Shown here piece after piece: positions 466-10,295 of a stretch of 10,538 bases of DNA. Position numbers and translations under genes: made by a program. The notes beneath the pieces are model-generated. The model was not told the origin of the DNA, did not search any database, and saw only the letters and a program-made list of their open reading frames with translations. Each line of letters begins with the position of its first letter. Within the stretch, counting starts at the first letter, position 1. Source of the DNA: Thermotogota bacterium (GTDB taxonomy: Bacteria > Bipolaricaulota > Bipolaricaulia > UBA7950 > UBA9294); NCBI GenBank assembly GCA_039679545.1, contig JBDKUT010000139.1, forward strand, positions 1 through 10,538, in the 5' to 3' direction.

Positions 466-1614
466 CTACAAGTCGTCCTCGGGCTTGATGTCCTCCTCGC
501 CCTCCTCTTCCTCCTCGCACTTCGTCTCCGTGTTGCCGGCGGCGAGGACGAACACCGCCGCCTGTTCGATGAATGAGCAACCCTTCGAGTCGCGCATCGT
601 CTCGACCCACTCCTTCATGGAGAGCGCGTATTCGGCCGGGTCCGCGCCGTCCATGAACGACTGCCCCTTGAGGATCGGGTTGAGCGTGTAGGTCGTCTTC
701 CCCTTCTCGCCGACGAGGACGCCGTAGCGGACGAGCGTGTTGAAGAAATCCTCCTCCCACACGATGCCGCGCTTGTCGAAGTAGATGCAGAACTCCGTCT
801 CGAGGAACGGGCGGAAGCACTTGTTCTTGATCGTGCGCGCCTTGACGCGGACGCCCTCGACTTCGCGGAACTTCTCCGTTCCCTTCGCGCCCTTGACGCT
901 GCGCTCGCGGAACAGCTTCTTGACGACGGTGAGGAAGATGCGGATGCTCGCGTAGAACTTGAGCGCCCGCCCGCCGACGCTGTCCTGTTGCTTCCCGGGC
1001 GCCGGGCTGAACGTGCCGATCTTGTCGCGGAGCTGGTTGACGAGCACGAGCGCGGCCCCGGTGTTCGCGAGCTGCTTGCTCACCTTCTTCAACCCGCGGG
1101 AGAGGACGCGGGGGAGCGCCGCGACGACGGCATCCTTCGTGGACTTGTCCTCCTCCTGCTCCGTGATGAGCGCGGCCACGGAGTCGAGGAAGATGACGAC
1201 GGGCTCCTCCGCCGAAACCTCCCCCTCGAACTCGTCGAGGATGCCGACCATCGCGTCCATGATCGTCTCCGCGCTCGCGTCCCCGCTCTGGTCGTCGTAG
1301 GCGAGCCGGCCGAGGTCGAAGCCGACGTCCTCCGCGCGCTTCTTATCGAAGGTCGCCTCGATGTCGTGGAGCACGCTGAGCCCGGGGTTGGCGCTGATGA
1401 GCTGCGTGACGAGCGTGGTCTTTCCGGCGCTCTCCTCGCCGCTCACCTCGACGATGCGGCCGGCGGGCAAGCCGCCGCCACTGATGACGTTGAGCTGCGG
1501 GATGCCGGTCGGGATCCGGAACGGGACCAGCGCCCGGTCGTCGTCGCTGCTCAGGGTGAGGTTGATCTTGTATTTGCGGTTGATCTTCTCGAGGATGGAC
1601 CCGATCTTCTTCAT
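466..1614 (-). CDS. recA: RecA-family recombinase, divergent phage type (382 aa)
   Basis: IPTG..LN...GGGLPAGRIVEVSG, Walker A GEESAGKTT, catalytic DIE, Walker B FLDSVAAL, NQLRDKIG, GGRALKFYASIR, KNK, and an acidic C-terminal tail. Confidence 0.96.
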   Translation of the reverse strand: MKKIGSILEKINRKYKINLTLSSDDDRALVPFRIPTGIPQLNVISGGGLPAGRIVEVSGEESAGKTTLVTQLISANPGLSVLHDIEATFDKKRAEDVGFDLGRLAYDDQSGDASAETIMDAMVGILDEFEGEVSAEEPVVIFLDSVAALITEQEEDKSTKDAVVAALPRVLSRGLKKVSKQLANTGAALVLVNQLRDKIGTFSPAPGKQQDSVGGRALKFYASIRIFLTVVKKLFRERSVKGAKGTEKFREVEGVRVKARTIKNKCFRPFLETEFCIYFDKRGIVWEEDFFNTLVRYGVLVGEKGKTTYTLNPILKGQSFMDGADPAEYALSMKEWVETMRDSKGCSFIEQAAVFVLAAGNTETKCEEEEEGEEDIKPEDDL

Positions 1615-1617
1615 GCC

Positions 1618-2811
1618 CTACTTCTTCCCGGCGTCGCGCACGCGGGCGATGAGGTCCATCGCGCGCTGCTTCGACGACCCCTCCGCGGCGGGCTTCGCCG
1701 CGGGCGCGGGCTTCGTCTCCGCCTTCTCGGGCGCGGGCTTCGCCGCGGGCTTCGCCTGCTCGGGCGGGGCGGCCTTCGCCGCGGGCTCCTGCGCGGGCGC
1801 CTTCTTCGTGAAGAAGGACTTGCGCGCCGGCGGGGTGGCCTTCTCGGGCTCGGGCTCCGCCGCCTTCTCCGGCTCTTCCCGGGCGGCCTGCGTCTCCTCC
1901 GCGGCCTGCGCCTTCCCGCGCATCATGGCCCGGGTCGACTCCGTCTCCGCCATCTCAGCCCTGTTCTTGAACCGCTCGGGCGGAACCTTCGACGGCGCGG
2001 CGCCCGCGGCGCCCGTGATCGTCGGCAGGAGGTTGACCTCGAAGTGCCGCTTGACCTCGATCGAGATGACGCCGTCGTCCTCGACGGGCGGGAGGATGCG
2101 GATGCGGTTGACCCCGGGCTTGAGGTTGAAGAACTGCACGCGGTTGCCCCCGGCGTCCACGGCGTCCCCGGTGTCGCCGAAGCGGACGGCCTCGACTTCG
2201 CCCGTCTCGAGGTTCACGACGCCGCCGGCCTTCTTCGCCTTGAGCACGTCCCCCGTCTTGAGCAGCTCGGCCATCGCTTCCTCCGAGAGCACGGTGCGGT
2301 AGAGCCCCGTCTCGAGGTTGATGACCTTCTCGCCGTCCACGTCGGGGATGGCGCCGCGGTAGTCGCCGTCGGGGAGCAGCAGGTTCGTCTCGCAGCGGGC
2401 GGTGTAGCGGTTGTCGGTCGGCCGGTCGCCCTGCTCGAACTCGATCTCGAGCGCGCTGCCCTCGTCCGGATCCCACACGAGCCCGTGCGCGGCCTGCTTG
2501 TTGATGATGGCGCGGATCTGGTTGAACAGCGTCGGCGACGCGTAGAGGATCTGCGGCGTGAACGGCGCGCCGCCGGTCTTCTCGTTGAGGTCGATGATCT
2601 GGTAGACCTCGTAGGTCGTCGGGCGCAGCCGCCGCGCGGCCTGCTGGATCCCCTTGTCGCCGGAGCCGAGCGCCTTGTCGACCGCGGCGCACACCGGGCA
2701 CTTGCCGAGGTGCTCCTCGAGCCCGAACGTCTGGTAGCACAGCACCTGCGCCGGCCCCGTCTCGGGCTGCTTGATGCTGCCCTCCCTCGTGGACTTGCCC
2801 CATTTGAACAT
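1618..2811 (-). CDS. gp32-like zinc-binding single-stranded DNA-binding protein, apparently circularly permuted, with a Pro/Ala/Lys/Glu-rich tail (397 aa)
   Basis: LCYQTFG...KCPVC, ARRLRP, WDPDEG.ALEI and FFNLKPGVNRIRILPP...EVKRH match gp32-like SSB segments as I recall them. AGGAGG RBS before ATG 2811. Lies between polA and recA. Confidence 0.82.
   Translation of the reverse strand: MFKWGKSTREGSIKQPETGPAQVLCYQTFGLEEHLGKCPVCAAVDKALGSGDKGIQQAARRLRPTTYEVYQIIDLNEKTGGAPFTPQILYASPTLFNQIRAIINKQAAHGLVWDPDEGSALEIEFEQGDRPTDNRYTARCETNLLLPDGDYRGAIPDVDGEKVINLETGLYRTVLSEEAMAELLKTGDVLKAKKAGGVVNLETGEVEAVRFGDTGDAVDAGGNRVQFFNLKPGVNRIRILPPVEDDGVISIEVKRHFEVNLLPTITGAAGAAPSKVPPERFKNRAEMAETESTRAMMRGKAQAAEETQAAREEPEKAAEPEPEKATPPARKSFFTKKAPAQEPAAKAAPPEQAKPAAKPAPEKAETKPAPAAKPAAEGSSKQRAMDLIARVRDAGKK
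1688..1754. repeat. Four copies of gcgggcttcg encoding KPA repeats in the SSB tail
   Basis: Exact copies at 1688, 1706, 1733 and 1745, inside the low-complexity AKPAAKPAP coding region. Confidence 0.8.
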
Positions 2812-2823
2812 GCTGAACCCCTC

Positions 2824-3060
2824 CTAGTGTGGAAGTTGCCCGAGCTTGCGCCCGGTCATCTCGAGCAGCGTCTTGAGCGCCGCGTTTACTTGTGCCCGTT
2901 CCTCCGGCGTGAACATGCCCCACGTGGCCGGCTCGCGGAACGCTTCGAGGGTCGCCTCGATGTTGATGAACAGGTCGAGGATCGCCAACCCCTTCTGACT
3001 GATCGTGTTGTTCGCGCGTTCCGCCATCTCCGAATGCCCCCGGTTTAAGTAACCCGTCAC
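2824..3060 (-). CDS. Small hypothetical, probably helical protein (78 aa; alternative ATG start at 3027 gives 67 aa)
   Basis: Fills the gap between polA and SSB. The GTG overlaps the polA TGA (GTGA). GC-rich third codon positions in the body. No recognisable motif. Confidence 0.7.
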   Translation of the reverse strand: MTGYLNRGHSEMAERANNTISQKGLAILDLFINIEATLEAFREPATWGMFTPEERAQVNAALKTLLEMTGRKLGQLPH

Positions 3061-5492
3061 GCCGCAAGATCCATCTCGTCAGCGAACGCGAGCGCGGCCT
3101 TCCCGCTCCCGATCGTGAGCATGTTCGCCCAATCCCCGCCGATCTTCATCTCGCAAGTGAACGGGAAGCCGGCCCACTCCTCGACGTAATCGGCCTCCAT
3201 GATGGGAACGATGGCCCGGATCGCGACCGGGACAAGGTCGGCCCGGACCGAGAACATGACGCTATCGTGGACCGGGACGATGAACTTGATCTCGCCGCGG
3301 TCCTCGTAGCCCGTCTCGTCGAGCCACCGCCGGATCGCGATATACTGCCTGAGCGCGATCTCCGCCGCCGTCATCTGAATGTAGTTGTTCGCGGCGATGT
3401 TGTCGCAATGCTTAAGGAGCTCGCGGTCGTTCGAGAACTTCGCCGCGTTGAGGATCTTGCGCAGGTCGCGCTTCCGGCCGAAATGATTGTCCACGAACCC
3501 CGTCTCGCGCATCCGCTCGATACGCTCGAAGCGGTGCGCCGCCGCGACGTGGTAAACCAAGTCGTATTTCTTCATCTTCTCGCGAACGTAATCCACCGGC
3601 TTCCGAAGCTGCTGCGCAAGCCGGTATTCACCTGCGTTGTAGTTTTTCGCGAGGACGACCCGCTTCATGAGGTCGCGCTGCGCCTTCGTGTAGGTCGTGA
3701 CTTCCTCGACCTCGATCGCCGTCTCGCCGTAGAAGTCCTTGCCGTCGAGGAAGATCTGCATCATCTTCGGGTCGCCGCTGGAAACCGCCGTGATGCGCGG
3801 CTCGAACTGCGACATGTCGAACTCGAGGAACACGTGCCCCTCGTCCGCGATGAAGCACGAACGAAGGTCCGCTTCCTTTTTGTCGATGTTCTGCATGTTC
3901 GGGTCGGAGCTGCTGAGCCGCCCGGTGCGTGCCCCGCCCTGATTGAAATTGGCGTGGATACGCTCGTAGTAGAGCGTGCGCTCGATCAGCGGCTCGAAGC
4001 TCTTCGTGATCTTGTCGTTGATGTAGGTGTATTCGTTGATCGTCTCGATGAGCAGGCGTTGGAGCGCCGTCTTCGGGTCCGCATCCTGCGCGCAAACCAC
4101 ACACGCGCCGGACACCCCCTGCCGCTTGATGGTGTAGATCGTCGCGCCCTTCGCGATCTTCGCCGCGCAAATCGGGCACGCCGTCTCCTCGTCCGCGGTT
4201 CCGCTCGCCCCGAGCTTCCCGTCGATGTCGTGGAGCAGGTCGGCCCGCGTGTCCTTGTCCGTCTTCCACTTCCCCGTCGGCGTCCGCGCCGTGAGGACGA
4301 TGCCGCTCTTGAGCAGGAGCTCCGGGAAGACGTATTCCTTGCCGAGATCCATGACCGTGCAATGGTCGCGCGACCAGCCGGTGACGTTGTAGGCGATCTC
4401 GCGCAGCGTCTCCTCCGCCGAATCGCGCCGCTTGCGTGCCGCTTCGAGGCACTCGACCGCGCGCCGGTTGTCGAACCGGATGCCCTGTTGCTCAAGCCGC
4501 TTGAGAACGTGGATGACCTGCCACGTCTCGTCGTAGAGCCGCGCCAGCGTGGAATCCTCCGCCATGATCTCCGCCTGCTCGAGGAAAACGCGCGCCGTGA
4601 AATGCGCGTCCCGGGCGCAGTAACGGAGCAGCATCTCGAACGGGACCACCTCGTAACAGGAGTCGTCCGCCTCGAGCCTGCGCTGCGTGTCGTCCGGGAG
4701 GAGGTGCAGCGCGGAACGGCGCAATCCGCCAACGCCGCTCGCGGGGACGCCGATCTTGAACTTCGTGACGCCGCGCTTCGACGCCGGGGGGATCTCCTCC
4801 AAGATGGTGAACCGGGCGCCCTTCTCGCGCAGCGCCCCGAGCGCCTTCTCCGTGATGACCTTCTCCGACTTCCCGGAAGCGATCGCGATGAGCCCCTCGA
4901 GATACTCGATCTCCTCCGGGAACACGCCGTCCGCCTTCCGGACTTCCCAAAGGAGCGACTCCATCTCCGCGGCGAAACTCTCCGTGTCGTAGCGCGTCCT
5001 CCACGCCGCGAGGAACGCGGAGACGGGCGACTTGAAATTCTCGATCTGCAAGTAGCGCTTGACCAACGACTCGAGGTCGCCGCGCTGCGCTTCGGCGTCG
5101 GCGATGCGCTCGATTTGCAGCGTGTCCCAAAGCTTGCCCGCGATCTTCACGTCGAAGAACTCGAAATAGCCGGCGTCGAACTTGGCATTCTGCGCGATCC
5201 AGTCCCGCGCCGGGTCCGCGAAGATGCGCCGAAGGTCCGCCAGAATCTTCTCGACCGGAACGGGGAAGCGGATCGGAGCGCGCCCCTCCCGCTTCTCGAT
5301 CGGGACGACGTAGCCGCGCTGCCGCTCGAGCATCCAGAACCCGGCGCAGAGGATCCTGTTCGCCGGGTCGGGCGCCTTCGCGATGTTGCTCGTCTCCAAG
5401 TCGAACGCGACGATGCGCTCCGCCTCGAGCGCCGCGATGAACTCCGCGTAATCGCGCGCCGTCCGAACGATCGTGTAGATGTCCTCGCTCAT
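3057..5492 (-). CDS. polA: Family A DNA polymerase with 3'-5' exonuclease and no 5'-3' nuclease domain (811 aa)
   Basis: ExoI AFDLET, ExoII QNAKFD, ExoIII YCARD, TGRLSSSDPNMQNI, motif A FDMSQFEPR, motif B RDLMKRVVLAKNY, motif C VHDS. Start reassigned from 6185 to ATG 5492, which has an AAGGAG RBS directly after the primase TAA. Confidence 0.95.
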   Translation of the reverse strand: MSEDIYTIVRTARDYAEFIAALEAERIVAFDLETSNIAKAPDPANRILCAGFWMLERQRGYVVPIEKREGRAPIRFPVPVEKILADLRRIFADPARDWIAQNAKFDAGYFEFFDVKIAGKLWDTLQIERIADAEAQRGDLESLVKRYLQIENFKSPVSAFLAAWRTRYDTESFAAEMESLLWEVRKADGVFPEEIEYLEGLIAIASGKSEKVITEKALGALREKGARFTILEEIPPASKRGVTKFKIGVPASGVGGLRRSALHLLPDDTQRRLEADDSCYEVVPFEMLLRYCARDAHFTARVFLEQAEIMAEDSTLARLYDETWQVIHVLKRLEQQGIRFDNRRAVECLEAARKRRDSAEETLREIAYNVTGWSRDHCTVMDLGKEYVFPELLLKSGIVLTARTPTGKWKTDKDTRADLLHDIDGKLGASGTADEETACPICAAKIAKGATIYTIKRQGVSGACVVCAQDADPKTALQRLLIETINEYTYINDKITKSFEPLIERTLYYERIHANFNQGGARTGRLSSSDPNMQNIDKKEADLRSCFIADEGHVFLEFDMSQFEPRITAVSSGDPKMMQIFLDGKDFYGETAIEVEEVTTYTKAQRDLMKRVVLAKNYNAGEYRLAQQLRKPVDYVREKMKKYDLVYHVAAAHRFERIERMRETGFVDNHFGRKRDLRKILNAAKFSNDRELLKHCDNIAANNYIQMTAAEIALRQYIAIRRWLDETGYEDRGEIKFIVPVHDSVMFSVRADLVPVAIRAIVPIMEADYVEEWAGFPFTCEMKIGGDWANMLTIGSGKAALAFADEMDLAA

Positions 5493-5502
5493 CGTATCTC
5501 CT

Positions 5503-6540
5503 TTACAAGCGCCTGCGCGCCGCGAATGCCATGTAGTGCTGAACGTCGTCGGGGTCCATGCTCGGCCGCCCCGCCTTGAGCCAATCGCCGGGATCGCCTT
5601 CGCGGAGACGGAGAACGAACACCCGCTCGGGTCCGGCGTGAGACGCGATGCGGTCCGCGACCTTGAAGATGTCCGCGTCGGAAACGTCCGCCTTCCCGTC
5701 CAGCGTGACGATAATGCGCTCGACCGGGAGCGCCGCGATGCGCTTCGCCTTGTCGTCCGTCGCCGCCTTGCCGCCGAGCGCCACGCCCCACCGGAAGAAG
5801 CGGTTGATCCCGAAGGCGTCGAACGCCCCCTCGACGACGTAGACCTCCCGCCTGCGCCAGCGGTTCCACGCCAACCCGATCGGGAAATGCCCCGTCCCTT
5901 TGCCTGGCAGGCGGGGGAACTCGACCCCTCCGACCTTCGTCGGCTGCTCCTCCGACGGGTAGGTGTAGCGCCCCGTCGAATCGCGGAAGTAGTAGTAGAC
6001 CAGCGCGCCCCGTTCGTCATGAACGGGGATGACGACGGTCGGGCGTGAAGCGCCGAGCACGGCCCTGAACTCGTAGCGCGCGACCTCTTCCCTCGACAGC
6101 CCTTTGTCGAGGAGCAGGCGGAGCGCCTGAGCGCGCGCGTCGACGAACCCCGCCTCATCGTCACCGAGAATCGAAACGGTGGCACCCGGCCACCGAATCA
6201 CATCCCACGGATCCGCGGGCGCGCCCTCCGCCTTCCGGGCGGTCGCGCCCCCTAGCATCTCCTCCGCCGTGCTCGCGACGCGGCACCCGACCGCCCGCGC
6301 AACCTCCGCCCCGATCTCCGGGCCGAAGATGAACCGGGCGGCCTTGCCGATGTCCCGCGACGAGTAGCCGCAGCGGAAACAATGCGCCTGCCCGCGTTCG
6401 GCATTGATGTAGAGGTGTCGCTTGCGGTCCGGGCGCCCCGTCTGCCGGGCGCATTCCGGGCACTCGAGCTGCACCTCGCCGCCGCTCGAGCGCCGGGCGC
6501 GGTATCCGCTGAGCGTCTCGAGAAGAAGGGAGACGCTCAC
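5503..6540 (-). CDS. DnaG-like phage primase (Zn finger plus TOPRIM, 345 aa)
   Basis: CPEC...HLYIN...HCFRC zinc-binding domain, VVIPV, TOPRIM VYVVEGAFDA, ALGGK, VTLD, GDPGD. The GTG start overlaps the helicase TGA. Confidence 0.92.
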   Translation of the reverse strand: MSVSLLLETLSGYRARRSSGGEVQLECPECARQTGRPDRKRHLYINAERGQAHCFRCGYSSRDIGKAARFIFGPEIGAEVARAVGCRVASTAEEMLGGATARKAEGAPADPWDVIRWPGATVSILGDDEAGFVDARAQALRLLLDKGLSREEVARYEFRAVLGASRPTVVIPVHDERGALVYYYFRDSTGRYTYPSEEQPTKVGGVEFPRLPGKGTGHFPIGLAWNRWRRREVYVVEGAFDAFGINRFFRWGVALGGKAATDDKAKRIAALPVERIIVTLDGKADVSDADIFKVADRIASHAGPERVFVLRLREGDPGDWLKAGRPSMDPDDVQHYMAFAARRRL

Positions 6541-7868
6541 TTGCGCCCGCCCTGCGCCTTGCGCTCCCCGCGGAGCTGCGCGTAGTAGTCGTCAAGCCGG
6601 ACGTGTTCCTTGTATTGCTCGTAGGTCATGTCCGCCTCCGTCATCTCGAAGATCGGCCCGTCCCGGTGAACGGGGACGATGAAGCCCGTGATGCCGTTGC
6701 GGTTCTTGAAGTTGACCACGCGGCAATAGTTGAGCTCGCGCTCCGGCGGGGTATGCAGAATCTTGAAGCCTACGTCGATGACGCCCTTCTTCCCCTTCGA
6801 CTTCGCGACGTCCTCGTCCGCGTTGAGCTGCGACGCGCTCCACCCGACGAAGCGGTGCCGCTTCGCGACGGTGCGGAACTGCCGCCAGAGGTTCTCGATC
6901 TCCGTCCACTCCGACCGCTCCTGTTGCGCCGGCTTGATGAGGTCGAGGTAGTCGATGATGACGACGTCCGGGTGCCATCGCTTCCGGGAAAGCCGGGCGA
7001 GCAGCGCCTCAAGGTCGTAGAGCGTCGAGCGGTCGTTCGCCCATTCCACGAACTTGATGTCGCCGCCGACCTGCCGCACGGTCGCGATCTGCCGGATGAC
7101 CTCGTCGGCCCGGTCCCCGTATTCGTGGACCGGAATCCTCGTCATGAGGCAGTCGAAGCGGAGCTCCTGATCCGTCTTGTCAAGCTCGCAGGTGAGCGTG
7201 ACGAAGAGGACTTTGCGCTTCGCGAAGAGCGCCGCCCTCGCGATGTTGAGCAGCAAAACGCTCTTCCCGCCGCCGTAGTCCGCGGCGACGAGCCCGACCT
7301 GCCCGAACCGTAGCCCGCCCTGCGTGTTGTGGTCGATCGTCTGCATGCCCGTCGGGATGCGATCGTCTTGGAACTTCGTCGTCATGTATTTCACCCGCTC
7401 CGCGAGCCCCTCCGTCCACGACGGCGGCTCCCCCTCGACGGCGAGAACCTTCGTCTGCGCGGCCTCGATGCGCTCGACGACCTTCGCGAAGTCGCCGGAG
7501 AGGATGTCGTCCTGACTCTCGCGGATCGCGTTGCCGAGCTCGATCTCCTTCACGAACTCGAGCATGTTCTCGGTGTAGAACCGCTCGCTCGTCTCCTCCG
7601 CGGAGGGGAGCCCCGCGAGCAATTCGAGGATTTCGTCCGCTAGAAACCGCTGATTGCGCTGGATGTAAAGCGTGATCTCCGCGATGCCCGGCCCCGCCTC
7701 GTAGCGCTCGACGTAGCGCTGGACCGCCTTGAAAAGAATCCCCTCCGCCTGCACCGTGAAATACTCCGGCTTGAGCAGGTGGAAATAGGTATCGAAGAAC
7801 CGCGGATTCCCGAACAGCAGCGCGAAAATCCCGTGCGTGAATTGGACGCCCTTGTTCGACTTCGGCAT
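6537..7868 (-). CDS. DnaB/T4 gp41-like replicative helicase (SF4, 443 aa)
   Basis: IPTG..ID..TQGGL, Walker A ADYGGGKS, Walker B VIIDYLD, SASQLN, and arginine-finger KNRNG. AGGGGG RBS. Confidence 0.93.
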   Translation of the reverse strand: MPKSNKGVQFTHGIFALLFGNPRFFDTYFHLLKPEYFTVQAEGILFKAVQRYVERYEAGPGIAEITLYIQRNQRFLADEILELLAGLPSAEETSERFYTENMLEFVKEIELGNAIRESQDDILSGDFAKVVERIEAAQTKVLAVEGEPPSWTEGLAERVKYMTTKFQDDRIPTGMQTIDHNTQGGLRFGQVGLVAADYGGGKSVLLLNIARAALFAKRKVLFVTLTCELDKTDQELRFDCLMTRIPVHEYGDRADEVIRQIATVRQVGGDIKFVEWANDRSTLYDLEALLARLSRKRWHPDVVIIDYLDLIKPAQQERSEWTEIENLWRQFRTVAKRHRFVGWSASQLNADEDVAKSKGKKGVIDVGFKILHTPPERELNYCRVVNFKNRNGITGFIVPVHRDGPIFEMTEADMTYEQYKEHVRLDDYYAQLRGERKAQGGRK

Positions 7869-7881
7869 CGGTCCCCCTAAA

Positions 7882-7896
7882 GCGAAATTATTTCGT
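7882..7896. promoter_or_regulatory. Near-perfect palindrome GCGAAAT-T-ATTTCGT, putative operator, copy 2
   Basis: Matches the copy at 308-322 at 14 of 15 positions. It overlaps the stop codon of the 172-aa ORF and ends 13 bp before the helicase ATG. Confidence 0.55.
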
Positions 7897-8406
7897 CTCT
7901 ACCCGGTCGCTCTTCCGCTGATGCGCTTCGAGGTAGCGGACGACGGACGCCTGCCAGATGCCGAGCGGCTGCGTCTCGTCCTCGAACAACTCGCAAAAGT
8001 GCGCGTTGCCGACAAGCTCCTCGGCGGGGACCGTGATGAGATCCCAATAGCGCCGGTCGTTCAGGATCTCGTGGATGCGCCGCTGGTGCTCCTCGCTCGC
8101 CGTCCTCTTCCGCAGGCCCGCCCAAAGGTTGACCGCGCCGGCCTGAATGAGATGCTGCATGTAGCGCTCGCCGGAGAGCGTGACGAGCGTCGGGGGGACG
8201 CCACAGCGCGTCTTCTCGTGCGTGCATGCCGCCTCGATGTAGACCTCGACCGGGCGCCCGAACTTGCGGGCGAGATCCGCGACGCGGGCGAGGATGTCAA
8301 TCTCGCCCGCCGTGAACGCCCGCTTCATCTCGTGACCCGGAAAATACCGCTTGACGAGCGCGCGGTAAACCGTCCCCGCCGCCCCTGCTTCTCTGACCGT
8401 TGCCAC
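7888..8406 (-). CDS. Hypothetical protein (172 aa) between the two helicases
   Basis: AGGAGG RBS. The GTG overlaps the upstream TAG (TAGTG). Fills the gap with globular-looking composition and no recognisable motif. Confidence 0.82.
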   Translation of the reverse strand: MATVREAGAAGTVYRALVKRYFPGHEMKRAFTAGEIDILARVADLARKFGRPVEVYIEAACTHEKTRCGVPPTLVTLSGERYMQHLIQAGAVNLWAGLRKRTASEEHQRRIHEILNDRRYWDLITVPAEELVGNAHFCELFEDETQPLGIWQASVVRYLEAHQRKSDRVETK

Positions 8407-10295
8407 TACCGTTTCCTCCTCGCTCTCATGGCCGCTCGATCGCGCATGAGAAACGTCCTGAGATTGCCCTTCGTGCGGAGGTTCGCGTAAATGTCGTCCT
8501 CCACGCTGTTCTTGATGCGGAGCTCCCTTCGATAAATAGCCTCATAAACCTCGCTGCCGATGCGGTTCGTGCGCCCGTCGGCCTGATACATGTTGCCGAA
8601 ATTCCAGTCCCGTGAAAAGTTGAAAATCTGGTTGACGAATTGGAGCCCGATGCTCTCGCTGATCGTACCGTAGGTCGCGATGAGAACGCGGAATCGGTGC
8701 TCCTTGAAGTCGCGCAGGATGGCGGTCTTCTTCGGGGTCGCCATGCCCCCGACAATGGCGCGGAAATCGGCCTCGATCGACTGCATGGCCCTCGTCAGGA
8801 TTTCCGCCTCCCCCCGGAAGAAGCACCAGATCTGCACGCGGTCGTCCTCGGGGATGTCCTCGAGAATCTCGAGCAGGCGGTCGAGCTTCGGGTTGCGGTC
8901 GAGGAACACCCGACCGCGATCCTTGTCGTCGTAGAACCCTGAGCAGATCTTGCGCTGCTGCATGCGGATGCGCTGGATCTCCGCCATGAGCCCGCCCGCG
9001 GGGATGTCGTCCGCCTCCTCGATCGTCACGAGCTGCGGCTCCTCCGGCACCTCGATCTCACCGCCCGCCTCCTCCACTCGGCGGTAGATCTCCTCCGCCC
9101 GCGCGTCGAGGTCGGCAAGGCGCGCCGCTTGCTCCCCGGCCGGCGCCAGCTCGTAGTGCTTGACGATCTCTTCCGGAAGGTCGAGGCACTCCCGCCGCTC
9201 GAACGAAAGCGTGAGCGGCTCGAGCCGCTTCTTGATCTTGTCATACGAGCCCTTGTAAGGCACGAGTTTTTTGTAAACCTTGCCGACGGGGAAGAAGTAG
9301 GTGTTCGTGAAGTGGAAGAAATCGGCGCCGAACGTGGCGCCGCCGTCGAGGATGAAAATCTGCGCGTAACTGTCCATGATATTTTTCGGCGTGAACGTGC
9401 CCGTGAGGATCTGCCTGAACTTGAGCGACGTGGCCTGCCGCGCGAACTTCCGGATCGCCTGCGCGCGCTTGCTCCGGGACATCGCCTTCGCCCGGTGCGA
9501 CTCGTCAACGATGAGCGTGTCGAACACCCCAACCAATTCGTCCCGGATGAAGCCTGCCGGCGTGAGAAGACACTTCGCCGCGATGTTCCACGAGAGCGCG
9601 TAGGCCTGATATTCGTTGAACCCGCCGCGCGCGACCTTCTCGAAATCCGCCGTGCTCAAGATCGGGCGCATGGCGAGCGAGGAAAGGAGGCTGAACTCGT
9701 CGCCCCACCCGACGTCGAGGGAATACGACGGCGCGATGATGAGCGCCGTGTTCGCCTCGCCCCGCGCGGAGCGGTAGGCGAAGGCGTCGATGGCAACCTG
9801 CGTCTTCCCCATGCCGACGTCCGTCGTGAGCCCGACGTTCGGGAAAAGCAGCGCGAAAAGAAAAAGGAACTGCTGATGGAGGAGCGGCTTCCGCTTGAAC
9901 GGGTAGAGGTCGAGAACCCCGGGAACCTCCTCGATCCCGTCGCGGTCCCGCGTCTTCCGCTCCGCCAGCAGACTGAGGAAGGTCCGCAGCGCCGCGCGCC
10001 GCTCCTCGATCTCCCGCGCCGCCGCGAGGAAGGACGGGTCGCGGTGCAGGCCGGGCACCTGCTCGATGTTGACGCCGGCCGGGCAGTCCTCGAGAATGTA
10101 GCGCAGCGTGTCGGCGCTGAGCGGAACGCTCCAAACGCCGGAGAGCCGGAGGAATGTTCGGTCGGGGACGGTGCGCCGGAACGCCACGGCCCGCTCGCTG
10201 CTCCCCTTCATGCGGTCGACCCGTAGGTGCAGCGCCGGCCGGCGCCCCTCCTGCCGCGGTGCCATCGCCATCTGGATGTAGCCCGTTCGTTCCAT
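8406..10295 (-). CDS. SNF2-family (SF2) helicase/translocase (629 aa)
   Basis: HQ (Q motif), DVGMGKT (I), LIIAP (Ia), IVDESH (II), LTGTFTPKN (III), LDLPE, PKLDRLLEIL, IWCFFR (IV), ESIGLQ (V), QADGRTNRIG (VI). Confidence 0.93.
   Translation of the reverse strand: MERTGYIQMAMAPRQEGRRPALHLRVDRMKGSSERAVAFRRTVPDRTFLRLSGVWSVPLSADTLRYILEDCPAGVNIEQVPGLHRDPSFLAAAREIEERRAALRTFLSLLAERKTRDRDGIEEVPGVLDLYPFKRKPLLHQQFLFLFALLFPNVGLTTDVGMGKTQVAIDAFAYRSARGEANTALIIAPSYSLDVGWGDEFSLLSSLAMRPILSTADFEKVARGGFNEYQAYALSWNIAAKCLLTPAGFIRDELVGVFDTLIVDESHRAKAMSRSKRAQAIRKFARQATSLKFRQILTGTFTPKNIMDSYAQIFILDGGATFGADFFHFTNTYFFPVGKVYKKLVPYKGSYDKIKKRLEPLTLSFERRECLDLPEEIVKHYELAPAGEQAARLADLDARAEEIYRRVEEAGGEIEVPEEPQLVTIEEADDIPAGGLMAEIQRIRMQQRKICSGFYDDKDRGRVFLDRNPKLDRLLEILEDIPEDDRVQIWCFFRGEAEILTRAMQSIEADFRAIVGGMATPKKTAILRDFKEHRFRVLIATYGTISESIGLQFVNQIFNFSRDWNFGNMYQADGRTNRIGSEVYEAIYRRELRIKNSVEDDIYANLRTKGNLRTFLMRDRAAMRARRKR

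Follow-up and report, generated by a model that had tools for sequence, protein, structure and literature searches.

The window, by which the whole 10,538-nt stretch of DNA analysed is meant, is to judge from its predicted genes a phage replication module in which an SNF2-like helicase, an unknown ORF, DnaB, a primase, a family A polymerase, a 78-aa ORF, an SSB, a UvsX-like recombinase and an SbcD-like nuclease follow each other on one strand (Table 1). The tetranucleotide profile of the contig (C139) is the most deviant among the 93 contigs that measure 7 kb or more in the 2.35 Mb bin, and it is therefore likely a phage contig that was swept into a bacterial bin. A search of IMG/VR gave no close relatives of its RecA and PolA, which points to a little-sampled phage lineage that was binned with a bacterium.

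Table 1. Positions in the window of the replication genes and of the parts of the putative permuted SSB
Feature	Position (nt)	Strand	Residues (aa)	Remarks
UvsX/RecA-like recombinase	466..1614	-		PHROG 97 E 5e-58, Pfam RecA E 4e-35; begins 3 nt past the SSB stop
Putative permuted gp32-family SSB gene (P0001)	1618..2811	-	397 in all	ORF calling; PHROG 1192 SSB E 3e-8, two stretches
C-terminal tail	1621..2031	-	261-397	Ala/Pro/Lys/Glu-rich, net +7; basic end, likely amphipathic helix
Block A	2032..2139	-	225-260	GxNxIRILPP strand and His strand with H256 (= T4 H64; codon 2044-2046); usually the core start
New linker	2140..2175	-	about 213-224	Old core end to old core start; pLDDT 58 (aa 211-220); variable among permuted proteins
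Inherited extension	2176..2256	-	186-212	Helix and TGE hairpin; common to one canonical clade (P0007-like); pLDDT 82-94
Block B	2257..2748	-	22-185	C25, C38, C41 (= T4 C77, C87, C90), helices, OB strands; approximately T4 gp32 69-239
N-terminal arm	2749..2811	-	1-21	Basic; W-G..[RK][EK][GD]SIK in 3/3 full-length permuted proteins
Shine-Dalgarno AGGAGG	2820..2825	-		8 nt before ATG; overlaps the stop codon of the upstream 78-aa ORF
ORF between PolA and SSB	2824..3060	-	78 in all	Function unassigned
Family A DNA polymerase	3057..5492	-		Pfam/PHROG
Primase	5503-6540			Upstream of polymerase
DnaB	6537-7868			Upstream of polymerase
SNF2-like helicase	8406-10295			Upstream of polymerase

When analysing the neighbouring genes, a Cys-rich insert (CPIC...CVVC) was found inside the polymerase (about 4070-4200, minus strand), between its exonuclease and polymerase domains; it gave weak matches only (zf-Di19, E 0.07; phrog_13559, E 0.18) and is a possible zinc finger. 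The 172-aa ORF that separates DnaB from the SNF2-like helicase (7888-8406, minus strand), without matches in Pfam and with a weak one in PHROG (E 0.25), possibly encodes a helicase loader. The UvsX-like recombinase has a strongly acidic C-terminal end as against the basic tail of the adjoining SSB, possibly a charge-swapped partnership.

The SSB gene is read from 2811 to 1618 with no internal stops, and the initial annotation was right in describing an intact ORF with a strong ribosome binding site. The residues and motifs that it had listed (C25, H34, C38, C41, ARRLRP, PQIL, WDPDEG and LSEEAMAELL) stand exactly where it had placed them, as does FFNLKPGVNRIRILPP...IEVKRHF, including H256, at residues 227-257 (nt 2133-2041). 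The stop-to-stop frame comprises 401 codons and only four of these precede the ATG, so that an N-terminal block cannot hide 5' of the start, and a profile search of the window gave no second copy of either block. GC3 is 0.95-1.0 across all segments of the gene, compared to 0.87-0.96 in five adjacent genes; together with the good ribosome binding site this even, very high GC3 fits an intact gene that is in use. No RNA holder was listed. The gene also contains a 20-nt direct repeat, 90% identical, at 2201-2220 and 2306-2325, which encodes V(I/V)NLETG twice and whose first copy is absent from the homologue P0002.

Order of the blocks in the SSB core

When P0001 was compared with a profile of 25 canonical sequences, which matches solved gp32 at E 1e-15, two crossed and non-overlapping matches were obtained (E 1e-24 and 5e-15 in a single comparison; 116 bits summed over the blocks), the one of 72.7 bits aligning aa 22-185 with profile positions 69-213 and the one of 41.4 bits aligning aa 218-259 with positions 20-62. 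Two such non-collinear matches were what the initial annotation had proposed to look for in support of a circularly permuted gp32-like SSB. The homologues P0002 and P0005 tile the profile similarly, the block B part first and the block A part second. The 25 sequences had been retrieved using P0001 as query, and checks that are independent of the profile therefore matter, namely PHROG, the SSBs of SP-10 and CP-51, and T4.

BLAST against the SP-10 SSB gave crossed segments (residues 220-264 of P0001 to 21-63, E 4e-8; 39-139 to 80-180, E 2e-4) and those for the CP-51 SSB are crossed likewise, with block A being 47-56% identical to the core starts of the two. PHROG 1192 (SSB) was matched in two stretches, of which block A alone matches the start (profile 24-62). 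A tblastn search of the core against annotated phages returned 12 weak records, 11 of them across aa 219-264, and the matches in SP-10 and CP-51 fall at the starts of the annotated SSBs. T4 gp32 aligns to aa 24-182 only (T4 76-233; hhalign 96.8%) and Pfam gp32 covers aa 15-139 only, at 16 bits and thus beneath its cut-off of 26.8. A Smith-Waterman rotation scan, run against 86 canonical proteins that were not part of the profile, peaked at cut 210-216 in 3/3 permuted proteins, with small gains in score (67.8 to 81.2, 57.4 to 67.9 and 64.1 to 69.8); it was used instead of a HMMER rotation scan, which split the matches of P0001 and P0005 and was informative for P0002 only. No collinear family match to P0001 was found in Pfam, PHROGs, PDB sequences or the ESM Atlas, and phmmer against PDB sequences gave nothing relevant.

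P0001 is homologous to the gp32 core and lacks its usual order, in which the IR(I/F)LP strand and the His come ahead of the three Cys, and because of this reversed order it is classed as a permuted variant of the gp32-like SSB family (PF08804 / PHROG 1192) and not as a standard member. Its two non-overlapping blocks tile the parent domain in swapped order, as in natural permutants. The tail is still C-terminal (order B-A-tail), which makes this a permutation of the core domain and not a rotation of the whole gene. On these alignments, the 397-aa ORF is judged to be a gp32-family SSB with its core out of order.

Homologues and assembly

The search for homologues revealed the same B-A order in P0002 (61% identity over 99% of aa 1-270), in P0005 (about 41% identity in a single collinear stretch, E 1e-57) and, as far as it reaches, in P0006, a fragment on a 992-nt contig that runs extension-linker-A-tail and from which the N-terminal part is absent. 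Among 116 proteins the order was B-A in three and A-B in 105, with eight unscored. The usual A-B order was also found in all 80 of the IMG/VR loci fetched by the block A motif (80 of 95 loci kept), with a pattern that would miss P0002 and P0006, i.e. two of the four permuted proteins. The full-length permuted proteins, of which there are three, group together as a single clade (SH-aLRT 99) in a quick tree of 61 rows, which leaves the sister group unsettled.

The opening 78 aa of P0005, with the same start, are encoded on an independent JGI contig (L085), where they come after a polymerase 41% identical to that of the window and a small ORF. The synteny PolA - small ORF - SSB is common to the two loci; the small ORF of L085 (74 aa) occupies the same place as the 78-aa ORF of the window, without detectable similarity to it, and no relic of block A was found upstream of the SSB in either. 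The P0005/L085 locus and the divergence of the polymerases indicate that the permutation follows a phage lineage whose age is about that of the split. The crossed order is inherited within one small phage clade, placed between PolA and UvsX.

Insensitive pattern scans of IMG/VR, GTDB genomes, 60 bin relatives and one metagenome revealed no further permuted loci. In the ESM Atlas, where only clusters of at least 50 were covered, no feature match was obtained; the best structure match was a gp32-like cluster (TM 0.58, 193 aligned) and the junction region (110-266) matched nothing above TM 0.35. No other gp32-like gene was found in the contig or the bin. In one IMG/VR locus (L063), two canonical gp32-like genes lie about 2.1 kb apart (frames from 3 and 2126, plus strand), which shows only that two gp32-like copies can share one genome. 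In another locus (L080:1907-3367, plus strand) the gp32-like core begins about 197 codons into the open frame, possibly an N-terminal fusion.

The assembly was checked with Logan contigs instead of raw reads. A contig (X1) possibly from the source of the window spans 475-2769 without differences, a contig from another sample of the same study (X2) spans 2090-2753 with 0 differences and bridges B-linker-A, and a third from a different study (X3) spans 1930-2080 and bridges A-tail; the contigs listed for the sample of X2 leave 2045-2089 uncovered. A contig from a second sample across the junction argues that the crossed order is not a misassembly, and X2 and X3 bridge the junctions, where the initial annotation had proposed a check of reads across 2040-2300. 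With diverged homologues in the same order, a single clade and bridging contigs, the arrangement is real in the genome and inherited.

The zinc site

In T4 gp32 the zinc ligands are H64, C77, C87 and C90 (PMC3012046, in part). The three Cys align to C25, C38 and C41, and H64 to H256 via the family profile. The HCCC set is present in P0001 and P0002; in P0005 the His position is taken by Phe and the Cys cluster is without any Cys, and such a joint loss of distant positions is expected if they belong to one shared site. Among the 112 canonical proteins, 73 had ungapped ligand columns (39 dropped), of which 58 carried HCCC, 11 the His without Cys, and four were without the His and at least two Cys; the His is present in 58/58 of those with three Cys. 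H34, considered as a fourth ligand, was rejected, since it is not conserved and is Pro in P0002. When modelled with Zn, H256 contacts C25, in agreement with the earlier proposal of a relocated His ligand, the zinc co-fold giving residue contacts only and not metal distances. H256 is accordingly predicted by the model to complete a His-Cys3 zinc site with C25, C38 and C41.

Zinc-free gp32-like variants occur in both orders, namely the SP-10 SSB (L001:5941-6969), P0005 and 15 canonical proteins, and in these the Cys ligands are replaced by Ser/Asp/Asn/Glu.

Predicted structure

For AlphaFold a block alignment was built from four permuted, 27 B-only and eight A-only rows from separate loci, in which no canonical row joins A to B; the A-only rows are the eight of 24 nearest to the query, as MAFFT placed B rows on block A with all 24. 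The resulting model is one domain with a mean pLDDT of 86.9 and a pTM of 0.81, in which aa 231-266 reach 92-97, the linker (211-220) 58 and aa 1-20 52-55. With two sequences only the pLDDT was 33.5 and the model uninformative. The alignment behind both good models was built from canonical relatives, and these models may echo the fold of solved gp32.

Structural alignment with VIA-align against 48,161 chains placed T4 gp32 first (8gme_B; a modest Z of 5.7, rmsd 4.0, 150 aligned) and RB69 gp32 second (2atq_B; Z 5.6, rmsd 4.0, 146 aligned), followed by a match of Z 3.5. Model residues 17-188 map to 69-239 of 8gme_B and the first 68 residues of T4 are unmatched, as a permutation predicts. Foldseek against PDB and BFVD returned nothing at E<=0.001, the weak BFVD rows including ssDNA-binding proteins. 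A gp32 OB-fold core is thus present in the predicted structure only, on the pTM and on gp32 being the top two VIA matches.

The blocks were also co-folded with zinc as separate chains (aa 18-212 and aa 222-266), which scored 0.87 compared to 0.01 for the best control. Of 157 solved complexes 116 attain the mark, as do 2 of 215 mismatched pairs, and these counts hold here only roughly. The runs share at least 95% of contacts, the partner has a pLDDT of 88, and the confidence of the core falls to pLDDT 56-57 once block A is replaced. Residues 235-240 lie mid-sheet, where they are paired with 71-75 as well as with 120-123, and H256 touches C25 and V40. The models predict the strand at about 233-240 to be a central one of the sheet, between 65-75 and 120-126. 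The co-fold supports complementation of blocks A and B, and its pass may reflect likeness to solved gp32. The expectation of the initial annotation, a single domain with 225-260 packed into the Cys-containing core, agrees with both the single-chain model and the co-fold.

Break point, linker and tail

The chain is opened between the His and the first Cys, where the loop measures 10-20 residues in 70 scored canonical proteins. In T4 gp32 this hairpin (65-76) contacts ssDNA through K67, K71 and W72 (PMC11551737, in part). The new N-terminal arm is modelled with low confidence, and homology to 82 canonical arms was not detected, with 198/500, 213/500 and 79/500 shuffles scoring equally in a test of limited power (8/500 for T4's own arm). 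The canonical arm gives cooperativity in T4 gp32 (PMC12893549, in part). The start of P0001, MFKWGKST (2788-2811, minus strand), resembles MFKRKST, the LAST motif of T4 gp32; homology to it was rejected, the likeness being absent from P0002 and P0005.

The initial annotation had proposed a Gly-rich linker over residues 186-225. A new linker does exist at about 213-224, differing by two residues in length among the permuted members, but the rest is mostly structured and an inherited extension: a profile of aa 170-212 matches 7 of 112 canonical proteins (E 3e-6 to 1e-3), directly after their core. The linker was also considered as a relic of the canonical N-arm and this found no support, as 123-372 of 500 shuffles score equally.

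The tail lacks the acidic character of the family, with a D+E fraction of 0.14 compared to 0.30 in canonical tails, whose median net charge is -10 and of which 7/105 are at >=0. All four permuted tails are net basic (+7, +4, +15 and +4), and since these proteins are kin this is likely one event. Mapping by the profile showed that several T4 DNA-contact positions are changed (K112 to T65, R138 to Y90, F183 to D133 and Y115 to E68) and that others are kept or conservatively replaced (K110, W144 (F96) and Y186). R238, P241, G118 and Y136 match the best-conserved columns of the family and the core has a net charge of -8 vs a canonical median of -7.5.

Proposed function and origin

P0001 is probably the working SSB of the phage, a gp32 core rebuilt in cis that would bind ssDNA; its being the sole gp32-like gene in the contig and the bin, in the usual slot before UvsX, counts for this. 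The chain would have been opened in the loop that in T4 bears K67, K71 and W72, and the old core termini joined through the linker, some 12 residues long. The N-arm, which is new, basic and Trp-bearing, would emerge at the break, where it likely substitutes for the ssDNA contacts of the lost hairpin and perhaps also for the lost N-terminal cooperativity peptide, and the tail would recruit partners, for instance the adjacent UvsX, with basic instead of acidic character.

As the tail was kept last, the simplest route to this order is an internal duplication, which needs an in-frame loss and not a new stop codon. We infer that the most likely course was an intragenic tandem duplication (A-B-A-B-tail), after which the first A and, in frame, the second B were lost, once, in the ancestor of the clade. 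No duplication relic or intermediate was found, and in the core tree the P0007 clade, which carries the extension, did not come out as sister to the permuted proteins.

It is unlikely, but deserves weighing, that block A instead completes the core of a neighbouring chain, giving a domain swap with either intertwined dimers or, on ssDNA, an open-ended chain, whereby cooperativity would come from the topology and no longer from the lost N-terminal peptide. Such a swap agrees with the co-folding of the blocks as separate chains, with the short, variable and poorly modelled linker and with a canonical N-arm that is not detectable, and the models fit closure in cis as well as swapping between chains. 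Against it, five of five single-chain AlphaFold models are confident (pLDDT 84-87, best pTM 0.81), so that closure in cis is geometrically possible, and the length of the linker varies by just two residues.

Less probable still is a gp32-like fold with a changed job, for instance in loading UvsX, in binding RNA or in regulation, instead of coating ssDNA stoichiometrically. The break falls in the DNA-contacting hairpin, other residues stand at some of the basic and aromatic contact positions, and the tails are net basic in 4/4 permuted vs 7/105 canonical proteins, which would suit such a role, the four being kin and the change likely one event. However, the gene is the only gp32-like one in the contig (10.5 kb of a larger genome, which may carry a second SSB elsewhere) and bin, it takes the usual SSB position before UvsX, and both the conserved residues R238, P241, G118 and Y136 and the charge of the core have been retained.

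It is very improbable that P0001 belongs, in collinear order, to a different SSB family and that its block A is a convergent motif, as might be read from the Foldseek result and from the low Pfam score, since block A has 47-56% identity to the SP-10/CP-51 core starts and fills just the part of the profile that is missing from block B (20-62 vs 69-213), and no collinear match turned up in the four collections searched. An assembly artefact or a recent chimera of two SSB genes, which the low depth of the metagenome contig, the use of Logan contigs with nt 2045-2089 uncovered among those listed for the second sample, and a 438-nt contig with a joint 1873 to 2226 could suggest, is already refuted by the homologues of 61% and 41% identity in the same order. 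The bridging by X2 and X3 and the uniform GC3 over the junctions also speak against it, and the odd joint consists of matches of only 19 and 25 nt in a contig whose long ends are unrelated.

Comparison with known systems

gp32 is a textbook SSB and a widely used reagent, and its behaviour is explained by three parts whose order does not vary: a cooperativity peptide at the N-terminus, then the core and finally an acidic tail. In the permuted lineage the zinc ligands are split between the two ends of the domain and the old N-terminus has become tethered, a new end is placed at the DNA-contact hairpin and the tail is basic. A gp32 core read as a working SSB in cis would make the lineage a natural experiment on cooperativity, autoinhibition and partner recruitment in gp32, and it marks a site at which gp32 tolerates new termini. 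It seems doubtful, though worth keeping in mind, that a gp32 rewired in this way (open DNA hairpin, buried old N-terminus and no acidic autoinhibitory tail) polymerises on ssDNA by strand swapping or by its Trp/basic arm. With a Pfam score beneath the cut-off and Foldseek missing gp32, such permuted genes get missed. As a speculation, a rewired SSB might evade the host defences that sense phage SSBs (DARNA preprint 10.64898/2026.02.22.705581 and PMC10732053, both in part).

The core of P0001 is homologous to that of T4/RB69 gp32 (PDB 1GPC, 8GME, 2ATQ; Pfam PF08804), with residues that align at the zinc-ligand positions. It differs from T4 gp32 in that the core is read B-A and not A-B, that the chain is open at the ssDNA-contacting hairpin, that a counterpart of the T4 cooperativity domain (1-21; PMC3012046, in part) is not detectable and that the tail has a net charge of +7, compared to -11 for T4 240-301. 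The SP-10/CP-51-type SSBs (PHROG 1192) have the motifs GxNxIRILPP, H...C...CxxC and DPxxG in common with P0001, and in SP-10 the SSB is followed by UvsX, downstream of a DNA polymerase gene, like in the window; unlike P0001 they keep the usual order and have acidic tails (-46 and -9), and the SP-10 SSB is without zinc ligands. The P0007-like clade (seven metagenomic proteins; L004, L011) comprises the only canonical relatives with the helix and TGE hairpin after the core, and in L004 the SSB is followed by a RecA-like ORF as in the window, but its members have the usual order and an acidic tail.

A search of the open-access literature by title or abstract start gave no description of a permuted gp32-type SSB. 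Natural circular permutations that arose by duplication and trimming are known from saposin/swaposin and from the motif orders of DNA methyltransferases; the permuted gp32-type SSB is real and rare, natural circular permutation itself being already known in other families. Like the saposin/swaposin-type permutants, P0001 combines the same fold with a rotated sequence, a break in a surface loop and old termini bridged by a short linker, and unlike these its C-terminal tail remains last.
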